Below, one piece after another: positions 5,595 to 46,076 of a DNA stretch of 64,000 nucleotides. The position numbers were made by a program, and so were the translations under genes. Position 1 is the stretch's first letter, and every line of letters starts with the position of its first letter. Where the stretch lies: NCBI GenBank assembly GCA_016198755.1, contig JACQIB010000001.1:96001-160000 (forward strand), given 5' to 3'. The notes beneath the pieces were generated by a model that made no database searches, was not told where the DNA came from, and was given only the letters and a program-made list of their open reading frames with translations. This DNA comes from Candidatus Aenigmatarchaeota archaeon. GTDB lineage: Archaea > Aenigmatarchaeota > Aenigmatarchaeia > Aenigmatarchaeales > JACQIB01.

Positions 5595-5717
5595 GCGCCG
5601 ATAGTCTAGTGGTAGGACCTCAGCCTTCCAAGCAGAAACCTCAGTGAGTTTCTGCACATCCGGCAATCCCGGTGTAGAAAGCTGATGACCAGGGTTCAAA
5701 TCCCTGTCGGCGCACCA
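5595..5717 (+). tRNA. tRNA-Gly(TCC) with 49-nt intron at 37/38 (5631-5679)
   Basis: GCGCCGA/TCGGCGC acceptor, TCAGC/GCTGA anticodon stem; intron folds into two hairpins. Confidence 0.92.
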
Positions 5718-37209: not shown

Positions 37210-38457
37210 ATGGCAGAACAGGAAACTGGATGGTTCGACCTGTCCATAGAGCAGAGGTTTTCTACCCTTATTTCTGCATTAGGAAATGATCTAAGAAATG
37301 TTATGGTAGCACATGTTCTGCCCAGACAGGCATTCAAAGATAGGAGACAAATAGCTGCAGATTTTTCGAGCTTCGTAGACGCATCAGACAAAAGGCTGAA
37401 AATGCCAATTCCAACTTCTATAGAATCCCACCTTAACAATGTTTTGGTTCCATTATGGGCAGAGGAAAGTCCTGATGGAGGCAGCTGGAGACTTACACAA
37501 GCAGGTTACAGGATAGCAGCACCAGCCGCTGCGCATGCAATAGCTACATCTGTAGAGCTAGGCACAATGAACTCTATTTTAGGCTTTACAAAAAAGGGCG
37601 GTTTTACAACATCCCCATACAAAAGGGCAATAATATTGGAGAATCTATACGAAACAACAGGAGGTGATGGAAAGCATATTTCTATAAGCGAAAGCGATTT
37701 GCAGCGCAGAATAGGATTTAGAAATTCTTCTCTATCCAAGCACCTTCCAGCCCTAAAGGATGCTGGAATGGTAAAGTACGATTCTGTTTCAGCTGAGGAT
37801 ATGGGAGCGCAACTATACAAGTGGAAAGAGGGCAGACCAGAAGATGTGCCACCGCTGCCAAAATTTGCAATAACCTTGGATGTGGCCAGAGCTCTCAAAA
37901 ACTCTAAGGATCCGATGGACTATAAATCCATTGCCTCTATGTTAGGAATACCTCCAACAAGAGTTTCAACTGTACTGAATTATCTTTCAGAGAATGGTTA
38001 TGTAGAAAGTGTAAGCGGTTTTGTAAGGGGAAAGAAAATGTCAGTGGTTAAAATTTCTGACAATGGAGTAGCTTTGATAGATAGGTTTATAGAACCTTTG
38101 AGAGCTACTTCTGTCACCAGACATCCTTCAAAAGAACTTAGAGATTCATCAGACATTTATGGAGGTCGCAGGACACTTGCTGTCGAGCATAACACAGCAG
38201 TTATGGTAGCTTATCAGAGCGAGCTAACTAGAGGAGAGACAAACAGGCATTCACAGGTTATTGGTATGCTCGGGGAAAAGCCTATGAGAATAGTTGATAT
38301 AGAAGAGGTTATTGGTGTTCCTCCAGCCAGATATTTGAGGGACTTAGTTGCTGGTGGCTATGTTCAAAAGAGGAGAGGTTGCCCATCAGACCCTGGAAAA
38401 GGACATGGAGTTTGGTACAGCCGCACATCAAGGCCATTTTCCAGCCCAGCACTTTAA
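37210..38457 (+). CDS. Multi-winged-HTH DNA-binding protein
   Basis: Repeated HTH-like segments (LSKHLPALKDAGMV, VSTVLNYLSENGYV, YLRDLVAGGYV). Confidence 0.65.
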   Translation: MAEQETGWFDLSIEQRFSTLISALGNDLRNVMVAHVLPRQAFKDRRQIAADFSSFVDASDKRLKMPIPTSIESHLNNVLVPLWAEESPDGGSWRLTQAGYRIAAPAAAHAIATSVELGTMNSILGFTKKGGFTTSPYKRAIILENLYETTGGDGKHISISESDLQRRIGFRNSSLSKHLPALKDAGMVKYDSVSAEDMGAQLYKWKEGRPEDVPPLPKFAITLDVARALKNSKDPMDYKSIASMLGIPPTRVSTVLNYLSENGYVESVSGFVRGKKMSVVKISDNGVALIDRFIEPLRATSVTRHPSKELRDSSDIYGGRRTLAVEHNTAVMVAYQSELTRGETNRHSQVIGMLGEKPMRIVDIEEVIGVPPARYLRDLVAGGYVQKRRGCPSDPGKGHGVWYSRTSRPFSSPAL

Positions 38458-38460
38458 TTA

Positions 38461-38907
38461 TTATTTCCCTTCCAGAGTTTTAGGCCCAAAGGGGTAAGGA
38501 AGCAGATCTTTTATTGTTGCAATCAAAACCCTGTCCTTCCTTGTGTTTGAAGAGATAACCTCAACCCCCCCTCCCGCAAACTCAAACAAAATCTGTCTAC
38601 ACTCCCCGCAGGGACCGCAAACATCCTTTGTATCATGATTATCTCCCTTTGCAATAACAGCCATAGATTTGAACTTTTTGTGTCCCATAGAAACAGCTTT
38701 TGCAATAGCAGCCACCTCAGCATGCACAACATGGTATACAGCATTCTCCACATTCGTTGCCCCAACAATTTCTCCACTTTCAGTAAGAACAGCGGCTCCA
38801 ACTGAAAACCCAGAATATGGACTATATGAGTTTTCCATAACCTTCTCAGCAGCATCCAAGAGCATTTTTTGTTCTTTGTTAAGTTTAGTATAGTTTGTTT
38901 CAATCAT
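38461..38907 (-). CDS. cdd: Cytidine deaminase
   Basis: SYSPYSGFSVGAA, HAE, PCGECRQ. Confidence 0.94.
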   Translation of the reverse strand: MIETNYTKLNKEQKMLLDAAEKVMENSYSPYSGFSVGAAVLTESGEIVGATNVENAVYHVVHAEVAAIAKAVSMGHKKFKSMAVIAKGDNHDTKDVCGPCGECRQILFEFAGGGVEVISSNTRKDRVLIATIKDLLPYPFGPKTLEGK

Positions 38908-40365: not shown

Positions 40366-40395
40366 GGTTCCTATAACCTTTGGCAGCATAAAAAT

Positions 40396-40640
40396 TGGTG
40401 GGCCCGGAGGGAGTTTCGAACCTCAAGGGAGAGGTTGAAAGGAGATACGTAGTTTCTCCTTCTTCGAACCCTCGACTCTCGGGTCTGAAGAGTGCTGCTC
40501 TCGCAGTATTTCTTCCTGTCATCGCCTGAGCTATGAAGACCCAGGCTGCACATGCTTTTATCTGGTGCGGGCATATTCTGCAACACTTCTGCGTGCCGCA
40601 GATAAAAGCCCGATACTCTACCAGACTGAGTTACGGGCCC
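40396..40640 (-). tRNA. tRNA-Lys(TTT) with two tandem introns at 37/38 (40510-40602, 40485-40509) and one at 59/60 (40413-40462)
   Basis: Exons give GGGCCCG acceptor, TCGGG-CTTTTAA-CCCGA, GAGGG-TTCGAAT-CCCTC, ACCA; three BHB-like motifs. Confidence 0.88.
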
Positions 40641-40717
40641 AGATAACAGAAATTGGTAAAGAAGCTTATAAAGGCTTTATATTCAGCCTCTGCAAAGAAT
40701 ATTTGAGGTGTTAGTTA

Positions 40718-42215: not shown

Positions 42216-42332
42216 TGGTCACAGCGTCTTTCGCTTCCCACGTTTTCCGCAGTACAACGAAAATCCCTGGCGCGATTCACTACCGTGTTCGGAATGGGAA
42301 CGGGTCTTGCCGCGCCGGTTTGACCGTGACCA
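42216..42332 (-). rRNA. rrf: 5S rRNA (unlinked)
   Basis: Terminal helix TGGTCAC/GTGACCA; CCCGTTCCCATTCCGAACACGG signature; ~117 nt. Confidence 0.93.
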
Positions 42333-42651: not shown

Positions 42652-43778
42652 GGAACGGAAGTTCTAGAACAGGAACATATACTGGTGGCCCAGAGCTATT
42701 TTACAGCTTTGTTTCAGAACATGGATTTGACTATATTAAAAGGGAGGTTGAGCCTTTCATGCCAACATTTCCACACTGGATTGGCGTTGGTCCCTCAAGG
42801 AGAAAAATTGATGCTGTAACACCCTACAGGGATGACATGGAAAGGAACAGAAGAATAAAACCTTCTTCTGAAATAACACCTTTTTCTGTTAGTAGACAGG
42901 CTGCGAGGATATTGATTAATAGAATAGATGGAAAAATGGAAATGTACCCGCCTGCTGAAAGGATATGTGATATAAGGATTCCTGTGGAGGAGACAGAGTT
43001 TACAGTCGGTGTTGCAGATGCGCTCTCAGAAGCCGGCTATATTATAGAGGCAATAAATCCCAATCTCTATACAATAAACGGGAAAAACTATACTGTAAAT
43101 GATTTCGGTAAAACATCGAGGTGTAGGCTTGCCGTATTCCCACAGCGCCAAAGGTTTTTGGCTCGTGTTTTTGAAGATGTTATATGGAACCCGCAGGTAA
43201 GGCCCTTTTCCTTGCCTGCCCTAAGGGAAAGAATTGTCTCCCTTTCAGATTATGAAATACGCAGGGCTAGGATAGAAGATAGCGAAGGCATAGTATCTCT
43301 CTTGGAGCGGACATTTCCAGTATATGAGACATGCAATCTAAGGGAAACTATGCCAAGAATGATTGCTGATACAAGCCCTATAGCCCCTGTTGTTTATGCT
43401 GCTGTCCGCAAATCAGACAATTCTGTTGTTGCTACCTGCACTAATGAGCGCAATCCCTTCCATTTTGCAGAGCTTACAGATGTAGCTTCTGATGCAAACG
43501 GCCTAGGCACAACAATATGCTACCTTTCCCTAGTGGCTGCAAGGGAATTGTATGGTGTTAGAAATTACTGGTCAGATGATGTGTCCCATCCTTCCATGAA
43601 CAGAGTTTCAAAACAGCTCGGCGCTGTTTTCTCTGGCATCCACCCCGTCCAAGTCAAAATAACAACCCGCCAGTTCCAAACAGACCCAAACCCAGTATAC
43701 AGGCTCACAGAAACCCCTCGGGCTATGGATTTATTTGTCTGGACTGGTTCAACAGACTTTGAGAGAGTGTTGGTATGA
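42648..43778 (+). CDS. GNAT acetyltransferase, C-terminal half resembling beta-lysine N-acetyltransferase (AblB/YodP)
   Basis: IRRARIED..TFPVY, AELTDVA, MNRV..LG..FSG, FVW. Confidence 0.6.
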   Translation: MRNGSSRTGTYTGGPELFYSFVSEHGFDYIKREVEPFMPTFPHWIGVGPSRRKIDAVTPYRDDMERNRRIKPSSEITPFSVSRQAARILINRIDGKMEMYPPAERICDIRIPVEETEFTVGVADALSEAGYIIEAINPNLYTINGKNYTVNDFGKTSRCRLAVFPQRQRFLARVFEDVIWNPQVRPFSLPALRERIVSLSDYEIRRARIEDSEGIVSLLERTFPVYETCNLRETMPRMIADTSPIAPVVYAAVRKSDNSVVATCTNERNPFHFAELTDVASDANGLGTTICYLSLVAARELYGVRNYWSDDVSHPSMNRVSKQLGAVFSGIHPVQVKITTRQFQTDPNPVYRLTETPRAMDLFVWTGSTDFERVLV

Positions 43779-44443
43779 ACCTGACAGAAATACTGAAAAG
43801 AAATAGAGAGCAAATAGGCAGGATTTTTAATTTACAAAATGCCCAAAAGTTCTTTATCTTTGATTTTTCAGCTTCCAACAAAGAACTGCAAACAATGGAT
43901 ATGGAAAATGCTCTACAGGCTGATCAGTATGTGAAAAATATTTTAAGGGAAAATTCAGCGGATGTTGGTATAGGGAAATACGCTGAAGACAGGGTTATTT
44001 ACAAACACTCCCCGCTCTTTGGAACAGCTCGCACAATACACTTGGGAATAGATATTTTCCTGCCTGCTGGAACAAAAGTTTTTTCACCTCTCCCAGCCAC
44101 AGTACACAGTTTCCAGAACAATAGAGGTATAGGAGACTATGGACCTACAATAATATTGCAGCATGATCTAGAAGGAATTTTATTTTTCACACTCTATGGC
44201 CATTTAAGCCTCGAATCTTTGGAAGGAAAAACAGTGGGGCAGAAAATAGCGCAGGGGGAAATTATAGGAAAGATAGGAACTCTGGATATAAACGGTAACT
44301 GGCCAGAACATGTGCACTTCCAGATAATTGCAGATATGCTTGGAAAGAAAGGGGACTTTCCCGGAGTATGTTCAAGGCAGGACAGAGAATTTTACTTAAA
44401 TAATTGTCCAGATCCGAACCTTATTTTGAAGCTGCAGATTTGA
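43775..44443 (+). CDS. M23-family metallopeptidase
   Basis: HLGIDIF (HxxxD), TLYGHL, HVHFQ (HxH). Confidence 0.9.
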   Translation: MNLTEILKRNREQIGRIFNLQNAQKFFIFDFSASNKELQTMDMENALQADQYVKNILRENSADVGIGKYAEDRVIYKHSPLFGTARTIHLGIDIFLPAGTKVFSPLPATVHSFQNNRGIGDYGPTIILQHDLEGILFFTLYGHLSLESLEGKTVGQKIAQGEIIGKIGTLDINGNWPEHVHFQIIADMLGKKGDFPGVCSRQDREFYLNNCPDPNLILKLQI

Positions 44444-44449
44444 ACAAAG

Positions 44450-44622
44450 TGGTCCCGCGGGGGAGATTTTCACCCACCCATAGGGAGAGGGTGGAGGGAG
44501 ATACGCAGTTTCTCCTCCTTTGAACTCCCAGCCTCTCGATTTCTTTTTGAACGCAGACTAATCTGCTGTTACTAATACGTAACCAGCTACAGTCGAGCGC
44601 TCCACCGTTGAGCTACCGCGGG
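44450..44622 (-). tRNA. tRNA-Tyr(GTA) with introns at 37/38 (44541-44586) and 59/60 (44467-44518)
   Basis: C1-G72 acceptor CCCGCGG/CCGCGGG; spliced T-arm GGGAG-TTCAAAT-CTCCC. Confidence 0.92.
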
Positions 44623-44702
44623 TTAACTAAGAATTACACAGCAGGGGTTTAAATCTTATGCAGTGCAGCAATACCTTTGCAATTTTATTTAGAAAATCTG
44701 GT

Positions 44703-46076
44703 TTACTCCTCAACATCCACTTTCAGCTTCAGAGACTCCGGGCTTTGAGGATAAGGCATATCCACAGAGTTTGATCTCCTGACTATAGAAGAGCTGCCGC
44801 GCGTTCCTTTGACAACAGCAGAAGCAAGGCTTTCCTTTCTGCTGGCTCTTATTGTATAGTGCAAAACCCTTTCCTCCCCCCTTCTCAGGGTTCCAATCCT
44901 CCATAACAGTTCAGTTCCTTCCCCAATCTTGCGCACAACAGGTTTTGCAGTTTCAAATCCCTGCAGGCTCAAGAACCCATGTGGAACAACATCTCTTACA
45001 ACAGTCCCATCCACTGGTCCTCCTTTGTTTAGAATATGAACTGTAACAGAATAATCATCTCCTTCTTTCCTTCTAACACTCTTGCTTACAACCAAAGCTG
45101 TCATTTGCAGATATCCTAATCCAGCTAAAGCAAGAGCCCCAGCCCCAGCAAGTGGAACAGGCCAGTAAAATTGTGAATACTTTAATTCTGTTGACTGCCC
45201 TGGCTGGAGAGTTGCAAACCAGGTCCAGTCAGCTCCCTTTTGGTCAGGCTCTGGTCCAGAATAGCTTGCCCACCAGTTTCCTGTTGGAATATCGTTTATA
45301 GCAGCATTATCAGGTGCATTACCAGTGTTAGTTGCTCTCAATATTACCTCTGCCCCAAACAGGCTTGGAGTTACAATTTTCTCAACCTTTACATTCTTTT
45401 TCACTGGAACTGTTATTGTTTTCTCAACTGTTCCTAACAAAAGCCTGTTCCCGTATAGCTCTCCCTTTACATTATAATCCCCGGGTTTATACTCATTTAC
45501 AAAAGAAGATCCGGAAAATACTAAACTCTCTCCCCTGAGCAAATCGCTCTGCCCAATCTCAACCTTATTATCCCCCACAGTCAAAAACATAACAACATCC
45601 CTTATATTGGAAGTTCCGATATTCTCAGCTTCCATATTCAAAATAACTTCTCCTGAACACTCTGTGCAGCTAACAGAGGAACTTTTCAAAACTGCAACAG
45701 TTCTCCTCTGTAAAACATCCAGTAAAAATGTCTTTTCCTCACTTTCTTTTGTTGCCACATTCTCAACCTTTATAGCATACCTGTAGGAAAAGGCTTTTGT
45801 ATCTTCAGGTGGGGAAAAGTAGAACTTTATTGTAGCGCTTTTACTCCCGTCAATGAAAACATTTGCAGCTTCCTGTGAAATCCACTGTGCAGGAAATGCA
45901 GAAACAGAAAACCATGCTCCATCCCCGTTATTTGTTATTGTCAGTTCATGAACAGCTACATCCCCTGCGAAAATTTGATCTAATCCTGGGAATGAAGTTG
46001 TAAAATCAGAGGCTAATACAGGGTAAGCTGAAAAGAAAAGTGCAAAAACCGCTGCAATTGACAATTTCTTGAACAT
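44703..46076 (-). CDS. Cell-surface protein with Ig-like domains and internal TM
   Basis: Signal peptide; repeated N.G strands; VRDVVP..LLWRIG.L..GEER.L.Y. Confidence 0.75.
   Translation of the reverse strand: MFKKLSIAAVFALFFSAYPVLASDFTTSFPGLDQIFAGDVAVHELTITNNGDGAWFSVSAFPAQWISQEAANVFIDGSKSATIKFYFSPPEDTKAFSYRYAIKVENVATKESEEKTFLLDVLQRRTVAVLKSSSVSCTECSGEVILNMEAENIGTSNIRDVVMFLTVGDNKVEIGQSDLLRGESLVFSGSSFVNEYKPGDYNVKGELYGNRLLLGTVEKTITVPVKKNVKVEKIVTPSLFGAEVILRATNTGNAPDNAAINDIPTGNWWASYSGPEPDQKGADWTWFATLQPGQSTELKYSQFYWPVPLAGAGALALAGLGYLQMTALVVSKSVRRKEGDDYSVTVHILNKGGPVDGTVVRDVVPHGFLSLQGFETAKPVVRKIGEGTELLWRIGTLRRGEERVLHYTIRASRKESLASAVVKGTRGSSSIVRRSNSVDMPYPQSPESLKLKVDVEE

Follow-up and report, generated by a model that had tools for sequence, protein, structure and literature searches.

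Nested bulge-helix-bulge (BHB) introns whose removal depends on order have already been published (available text of PMC3978253 and PMC8450103), and both papers cite Sugahara 2007 and Tocchini-Valentini 2009 for order-dependent multi-intron pre-tRNAs of Crenarchaeota/Thermoproteales. Up to three introns per tRNA gene are stated in the available parts of PMC8450103 and PMC4033280. Relaxed variants of the motif (hBH, HBh′ and bulge-helix-loop) are described as substrates of (alpha-beta)2 and epsilon2 endonucleases in the accessible sections of PMC4033280, PMC3978253 and PMC5829648, the last of which also reports that complete tRNA sets are unpredictable for some DPANN genomes. In the euryarchaeal Haloferax volcanii, the intron of pre-tRNA-Trp is a box C/D guide, according to the text available from PMC4090602 and PMC11408192.

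Here we compare with these systems a tRNA-Lys(UUU) gene found in a 64,000-nt stretch of a Candidatus Aenigmatarchaeota archaeon genome (GCA_016198755.1), hereafter the window, to which all coordinates refer unless a contig is named. We refer to this genome as G000 and to its contigs as C1–C6; G004, G010 and G017 are coded relatives, and L numbers denote fetched loci. An archaeal BHB intron located between tRNA bases 37 and 38 ends with a 4-mer, the pairing partner of loop bases 32–35, and two further bases. Membership was judged by a 4-bp helix (H), two 3-nt bulges on opposite strands, a cut after the second base of each bulge, and flanking helices.

Results

Layout and detection of the tRNA-Lys(UUU) gene

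The gene is encoded on the minus strand, with G1 at 40640, A37 at 40603 and A38 at 40484, and it finishes with A73 and CCA at 40396. A 118-nt insert (40602..40485) lies between A37 and A38, and the T loop is split by another 50 nt. When all intervening elements are taken out in silico, ARAGORN calls the product as a 77-base tRNA-Lys(ttt) cloverleaf with CCA. In its genomic form the gene is called neither by default ARAGORN nor by Rfam at the gathering score; an intron-tolerant ARAGORN run over the entire 0.89-Mb genome (6 contigs) returned 16 tRNA genes only and missed this one, and an Rfam search of 40380–40680 at E up to 10 gave 4 weak matches, every one far under its cut-off. It is the sole UUU-type lysine gene found in G000, an assembly that is 89% complete; the other match, at C5:94396, is a CUU gene.

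Four BHB-type elements interrupt the gene (Table 1), one more than in the original prediction, which had counted three introns; the additional element is a strict 29-nt BHB inside the outer of the two introns at 37/38. Strict BHB geometry is found for the T-loop intron and for this nested element, and for the outer intron only once 25 nt have been removed. An alternative anticodon, UCA, obtained by joining the loop to CTTCAGA, was rejected, as that junction has no BHB support and the triplet is not conserved in relatives. Folding of the whole 243-nt precursor gives a structure that does not resemble a tRNA (−104.4 kcal/mol, z −6.5), and it was excluded as structural evidence.

Table 1 Features of the tRNA-Lys(UUU) locus in window coordinates
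Feature	Position	Strand	Details
tRNA-Lys(UUU) gene, encoded CCA	40396..40640	−	exons 40640-40603, 40484-40463 and 40412-40396; four intervening elements
Outer intron, 93 nt (64 nt minus nested element), position 37/38	40510..40602	−	H CTTT(32-35)/GAAG; h′ CTG/CAG; bulges TA|T and AA|A
Nested strict BHB, 29 nt, inside outer intron	40565..40593	−	H GCGG/CCGC; bulges CA|C and AC|C; h=10 bp; h′=3 (GCA/TGC)
Antisense stretch AGATAAAAGC	40554..40563	−	complementary to G31-U(intron 3) = GCTTTTATCT; masks anticodon loop
Kink-turn-like or C′/D′-like module (tentative)	40519..40553	−	spacer and TGCA (YTGA in most relatives), hairpin GCCTG...CAGGC, GATGA; from alignment
GAAG strand common to both introns	40512..40515	−	partner of CTTT (outer BHB) or CTTC (inner motif), mutually exclusive
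Inner intron, 25 nt, on outer intron's 3′ splice junction	40485..40509	−	H GAAG(40515-40512)/CTTC(40490-40487); bulges AA|A and AG|A; hairpin CTGC-GAGA-GCAG
T-loop intron, 50 nt, position 59/60	40413..40462	−	strict hBHBh′; H TTCG/CGAA; h = 5-bp T stem; cut after 178/228: H=4, h=5, h′=2

The query portion that spans the T-loop intron has 5 further matches in G000 at 81–94% identity (C6:104141, C1:55864, C1:69143, C5:115663 and C3:234069). Also in the window are two more tRNA genes with introns, both on the plus strand, at 89–195 (Rfam score of 55.1 bits over 107 nt) and 5595–5714 (58.9 bits over 120 nt), and, on the minus strand at 42216–42331, a 5S rRNA gene assigned by Rfam.

Two introns stacked at one junction

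The 118-nt insert has no BHB as a single intron, given that its CTTC forms 0/4 pairs with loop bases CTTT (32–35). The internal sequence CAG-GAAG-AA|A does fit the 5′ junction, as had been proposed: GAAG (40515–40512) pairs 4/4 with CTTT, and CAG (40518–40516) pairs with CTG, intron bases 2–4. Excising 40509..40485 yields the canonical hBHBh′ of a 93-nt intron, with A38 and the anticodon stem placed behind GAAG-AA, and the outer BHB can be enforced in folding once these 25 nt are removed. As long as 40485–40509 is present, the outer BHB has neither a 3′ bulge nor an h helix, and the inner H′ strand forms 0/4 pairs with CUUU; in a scan of all cut-site pairs of the 243-nt precursor, the outer intron appears as a cut after 38/131 with H=4 and h′=3 but with h=1 in the primary transcript. 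On these points the original prediction agrees with our analysis throughout.

The proposal that the last 25 nt form a motif of their own holds in part. GAAG/CTTC pairs 4/4 and ends two bases before the 3′ junction, but the motif is relaxed, not strict. Under the strict rule it has h=1 (contiguous) and h′=0 (not adjacent to H), with H at 4/4 and a 3′ bulge, AG|A, that adjoins the anticodon stem; this stem is the motif's outer helix at the 3′ cut and is reached over a three-way junction. The motif is of the relaxed bulge-helix-loop or internal-loop type, its 5′ cut falling in a loop or in a 3x2 internal loop. The predicted minimum free energy (MFE) structure of the primary anticodon arm contains both GAAG(A)/(T)CTTC and the hairpin of the inner intron.

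A full-length search allowing up to 4 errors located the 25-nt and 29-nt elements at this locus only, with no second copy in G000. A mobile family for these elements was considered and dropped: core searches (at most 3 errors in 18 or 23 nt) returned the locus and 6 chance-level matches to the 18-nt inner core.

The nested 29-nt element would be cut after precursor bases 47 and 76, and its 10-bp outer helix is the anticodon loop paired with the intron's antisense stretch. The motif is present in G004 and in G017 (where H is AGCG/CGCT) and absent from G010. The element may be read as an intron lodged within an intron; its removal is unnecessary for tRNA maturation.

Comparative survey of tRNA-Lys(UUU) genes

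We surveyed 41 related genomes and then 371 of the same class, and fetched 100 loci. Genes were recognized by a 5-nt stem followed by CTTTTA, an arbitrary insert, a single base and the complement of the stem, together with a variable-loop/T-stem pattern. Under this rule 30 of the 100 loci gave no tRNA-Lys(UUU), and one false row in L046 was dropped. Seven loci left out of the counts (L048, L071, L075, L086, L087, L098 and L103) are tRNA-Lys(UUU) by eye, some with extra introns, and all have the direct RAAG-NN|A ending of the single type.

Homologous introns were found in 70 related tRNA-Lys(UUU) genes. In 52 of them the insert ends with a direct 4/4 partner of CTTT (GAAG, AAAG or AGAG), and we refer to these as the single class. 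This register pairs in 52/52 genes and registers shifted by −4 to +2 pair in 17–34 of 52, although the zero shift holds by construction and the comparison shows only that no neighbouring register fits. The remaining 18 genes lack a 4/4 partner at the insert end: 5 pair 3/4 (relaxed single class), and the other 13, from 9 coded genera in 4 families, show no direct pairing and fit the stacked model in exact register. The model resolves 13/13 of these: CTTT finds its partner in an internal RRAG-NN, and the insert closes with six bases, a 4-mer able to pair with the same RRAG and then two more. The inner inserts measure 11, 11, 12, 12, 13, 13, 13, 14, 14, 25, 26, 30 and 41 nt and are dissimilar save for the last 6 bases; in those of 11–13 nt, the 5′ cut would fall in a 7–9-nt hairpin loop.

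The strand shared by the two introns differs between groups. In the ten stacked genes of G000's order, GAAG is accompanied by CTTC (8 genes) or CTTT (2 genes), whereas the three genes of family f38 have GGAG as the shared strand and CTCT or CTCC as its inner partner, never CTTC. As predicted pairings, GAAG/CTTY versus GGAG/CTCY is a compensatory change, that is, covariation across the family.

Stacked genes are distributed patchily, accounting for 2/6 genes in family f1, 2/2 in f5, 6/20 in f3 and 3/5 in f38, and for 0/37 in 14 other families. G004, the closest relative by match, has no inner intron. Endings are family-specific, f1 and f5 having AG|A and f3 having AA|A, and nearly identical mini-introns recur from one family to another. 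These two patterns suggest an old insert that would have been precisely lost many times. The 13 stacked genes are kin, and if the insert arose once they represent a single event kept by selection and not 13 independent tests.

Two further patterns of insertion were seen in this class. In four f40 genes (L063, L065, L066 and L069), the intron begins with an additional 24–32 nt that adjoin A37. No BHB was found for this segment, which is absent from L062 and may be a hairpin expansion or a 5′-side counterpart of the stacking. In other families, tRNA-Lys(UUU) genes are further interrupted, either in the D loop or within the anticodon stem on its 5′ strand (L048, L075, L086, L087 and L103; also L026 and L059).

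Related strains

DNA contigs of 4 runs were used for a comparison of strains, in which the gene is covered at ~90–97% identity by contigs from three other studies of groundwater or soil. The 25-nt insert is kept in three related strains, and GAAG, CTTC and the bulges are unchanged in all of them. A change at 40507 (strains X5, X7 and X10) converts an A-C mismatch of the inner hairpin to G-C, so that one pair is gained, and X5 is further altered at 40493, where an A-U pair of the same hairpin becomes G-U. In X5, both strands of the outer intron's hairpin have changed in a compensatory manner (C97>U with G115>A), and 21-nt indels between strains are confined to the interior of the nested 29-nt element. 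The original prediction pictured one intron inserted exactly at the 3′ splice site of another. The two do abut at a single 37/38 junction, but the insertion is neither private nor recent: the stacked architecture appears old, being conserved across the coded genera and kept by the related strains.

A joint at 40486>40607 in X7 and X10 (skipping 120 nt, with 'AC' between and a side of 24) was examined as a possible spliced or intron-less allele and rejected; it stems from an intronless tRNA of anticodon GTA, which is unrelated and derives from other organisms present in the sample.

Antisense stretch and box-like module of the outer intron

Across the class the intron follows a common plan: right behind A37 an antisense segment turns back, and a short spacer then leads to a YTGA-type box, beyond which come a covarying hairpin, a RATGA-type box, CAG and the RRAG strand. 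The antisense helix covaries on the intron side; at intron base 1, the pairs are U-A in 33 genes, A-U in 21, G-C in 8 and U-G in 3. The YUGA ... RAUGA pair surrounds the covarying hairpin in most relatives and is degenerate (TGTA, TTTA) in several genera. Based on this alignment, we tentatively assign the module at 40519..40553 to the K-turns.

Like the guide intron of pre-tRNA-Trp, the 37/38 intron described here places an antisense to the anticodon region beside a GA-type box pair. A guide of at least 9 nt, directly upstream of a D-type box and complementary to its target, is what such a system calls for, and the antisense stretch corresponds to this: its helix with the anticodon loop is contiguous over 6–11 bp in 69/70 genes and reaches at least 9 bp in 60/69. 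The genome also encodes fibrillarin, Nop5 and L7Ae (profile matches of 238.8, 147.9 and 99.9 bits, respectively). Unlike the guide intron of pre-tRNA-Trp, however, the Lys(UUU) intron has one box pair only, which in G000 is degenerate (TGCA ... GATGA). Rfam returned nothing above threshold for it, sR19 scoring 10.7 bits against a cut-off of 45. Applied by eye to the alignment, the fifth-nucleotide rule points to C32 in G000's order and to U34 elsewhere, the antisense-box spacing differing by ~2 nt, so that the target is not consistent. We describe the outer intron as kink-turn-like, and it is a candidate for guide function.

A tRNA-Lys(CUU) gene just upstream of the window (G000:C5 ~94398–94570) carries one 37/38 intron, 39 nt long and built on the same plan, with no stacked insert. 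Its antisense and its GGAG strand match its own CTCTTA loop, and a T-loop intron is also present.

Folding energies

The inner helix is present at 4/4 in the MFE structure of the primary arm in 11/13 stacked genes, and the outer half-motif conformer is costlier than the inner one in 13/13. In G000 the two lie 7.4 and 2.7 kcal/mol above the MFE, respectively, and the outer cost increases to 14.0 kcal/mol when h′ is enforced too. After removal of the 25 nt, the canonical BHB of G000 costs 9.1 kcal/mol, or 5.4 kcal/mol with the nested element out as well; both values fall within the range of single-intron genes (2.5–10.9 kcal/mol). Among the 65 genes folded, a set that excludes the 5 relaxed ones, none has the BHB conformer as its predicted MFE; the conformer lies 2.5–18.3 kcal/mol higher, because the antisense helix wins. 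The thermodynamic case for an order of splicing is therefore soft.

Discussion

Our preferred reading, to which we assign a probability of about 0.7, is that this is a functional tRNA-Lys(UUU) gene with a composite 118-nt insert, made up of an outer intron, old and conserved, a nested BHB and an inner intron that shares GAAG with the outer one, and that processing would proceed from the inner intron outwards. The genome encodes the enzymes that such a pathway would need: two EndA-domain frames of the splicing endonuclease (PF01974, 80.2 and 67.7 bits), adjacent on C1 at 37787–38053 and 38316–38576, and an RtcB ligase (PF01139, 469.8 bits). What was observed is the architecture with its conservation and covariation, the folding preference in silico and these enzyme genes; each cleavage, and the sequence in which the cleavages would occur, we infer. 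The primary transcript would keep CUUU paired within the antisense helix and GAAG tied up in its local hairpin with CUUC. The first target of the two-subunit endonuclease would be the inner motif, cleaved behind GAAGAA and behind CUUCAG, and the nested BHB would probably be cut at this stage as well. With CUUC removed, GAAG would be free to pair with CUUU and the canonical BHB could form, whereupon the 5′ site (A37|U) would be cut and RtcB would ligate A37 to A38.

The order of these steps would be forced as a matter of logic, since the strand that forms the exon-side helix of the inner intron belongs to the outer intron. Outer-first excision would leave the 25 nt in the loop with 0/4 pairs to CUUU and would thus be a dead end. 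This much of the ordered splicing originally proposed stands, whereas the religated intermediate that was thought to be required is unneeded: the two cuts of the inner intron already leave exactly the ends of the outer 3′ cut. These ends could be religated and recut, or reused directly as the outer 3′ cut, and a religated intermediate is therefore possible without being necessary.

The RtcB match is split within a single 1010-aa open frame outside the window (G000:C5:42797–45628), with Pfam positions 1–50 at 42797–42970 and 48–426 at 44414–45628; the pattern resembles that of an intein-type insertion into the gene for the tRNA ligase.

One may postulate instead that the 118 nt are released whole: the GAAG/CUUC conformer would expose the 3′ site to cutting and the CUUU/GAAG conformer the 5′ site, GAAGAA would never be followed by a cut, and neither a 25-nt nor a 93-nt RNA would arise. 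Both half-motifs exist, the two active sites of the archaeal endonuclease act independently on the two bulges, and the loop-side 5′ site of the inner motif is its weakest element, with h′=0 under the strict rule. We nevertheless consider release in one piece improbable, given that the GAAG/CUUC conformer presents both inner sites symmetrically across a 4-bp helix, and that the first inner base is A in 12/13 stacked genes even though the outer BHB does not need it. Moreover, bulge-helix-loop motifs are cut by broad-specificity enzymes, as described in the available text of PMC4033280 and PMC3978253.

Two other scenarios would dispense with the stacked architecture or with its function. The match between GAAG and CTTC could be incidental and the 3′ boundary set in some other way, for instance by measurement from the mature tRNA body, so that the 118 nt would be one unusual intron. 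For G000 alone, the calculated chance of such a 4-mer match at one register is ~1 in 64 with G-U pairs allowed; however, the motif recurs in 13/13 inserts that lack a BHB ending and direct pairing, with the compensatory change in f38, while the remainder of the insert varies freely from 11 to 41 nt. Recognition by a ruler is, in the available part of PMC11408192, a eukaryotic trait, and we regard a coincidental match as very improbable. The gene might also be decaying, the insertion having broken the intron and another tRNA now reading the lysine AAA codons. A second copy could be hidden in the unassembled portion of a genome that is 89% complete, yet no second UUU gene was found in G000, the exons are intact and form a perfect cloverleaf with CCA, and the design is kept in 9 genera and 3 related strains with changes that preserve structure. 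Decay thus seems scarcely credible, and we retain the reading of a functional gene with stacked introns.

One speculative and rather doubtful idea is that the stack is a selected timing device instead of tolerated junk, in which the small intron's hold on GAAG would keep the anticodon loop in the antisense/kink-turn module until the first visit of the endonuclease. The locked loop could then be modified or chaperoned, and splicing of the essential AAA-decoding tRNA would be licensed in two steps; as a corollary, inner excision would double as the outer 3′ cut, giving a three-cut pathway with no intermediate ligation. The placement of the insert exactly on a splice junction might also be a record of intron gain at a cleaved splice site, with stray RNA having been ligated there and then copied into DNA.

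The locus is of use in several further respects. Mechanistically, it would be a natural case of an intron that needs the sequence of another intron for its own removal, with the order of cutting built into the DNA. The comparative series, with inner inserts from 11 to 41 nt and two helix variants, provides ready substrates for the motif tolerance of the two-subunit DPANN endonuclease, and the patchy yet conserved distribution is a data set for the gain and precise loss of archaeal tRNA introns. For annotation, iterative intron removal that tests intron-internal strands would recover genes that are invisible to ARAGORN and Rfam.

Comparison with known systems

As in the nested pre-tRNAs of Crenarchaeota/Thermoproteales, a splicing endonuclease and a ligase would remove the introns described here, the removal being predicted in our case, and the BHB of the Lys(UUU) outer intron likewise could not form, by its predicted pairing, until another intron has been removed. 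In the literature compared, which concerned nested, stacked or twintron-type BHB introns and tRNA introns of Aenigmarchaeota/DPANN and covered Sugahara 2007 and Tocchini-Valentini 2009 through the papers that cite them, we found no two introns on one 37/38 junction and no account of the Lys(UUU) intron family. The inner intron resembles the relaxed BHB variants in having a 4-bp helix, one proper 3-nt bulge and its other cut in a loop, in a genome with two adjacent EndA-domain genes. Unlike those variants, the helix past its inner 3′ bulge is the anticodon stem, reached via a three-way junction and not as a continuous duplex, an arrangement for which no description was found in the literature compared.

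The Lys(UUU) gene also departs from the crenarchaeal cases in several respects. Its two stacked introns occupy the same phosphodiester position (37/38) and use a common helix strand, the genome is of the small DPANN type (by taxon label only), covariation extends across 9 coded genera, and a further BHB lies inside the outer intron. Judged by sequence comparison, the stacked feature is real and comparison-supported and its general principle is a known one; what is new in detail is that the two introns use a common strand, that its pairing covaries across the family and that a fourth BHB is nested in the outer intron.
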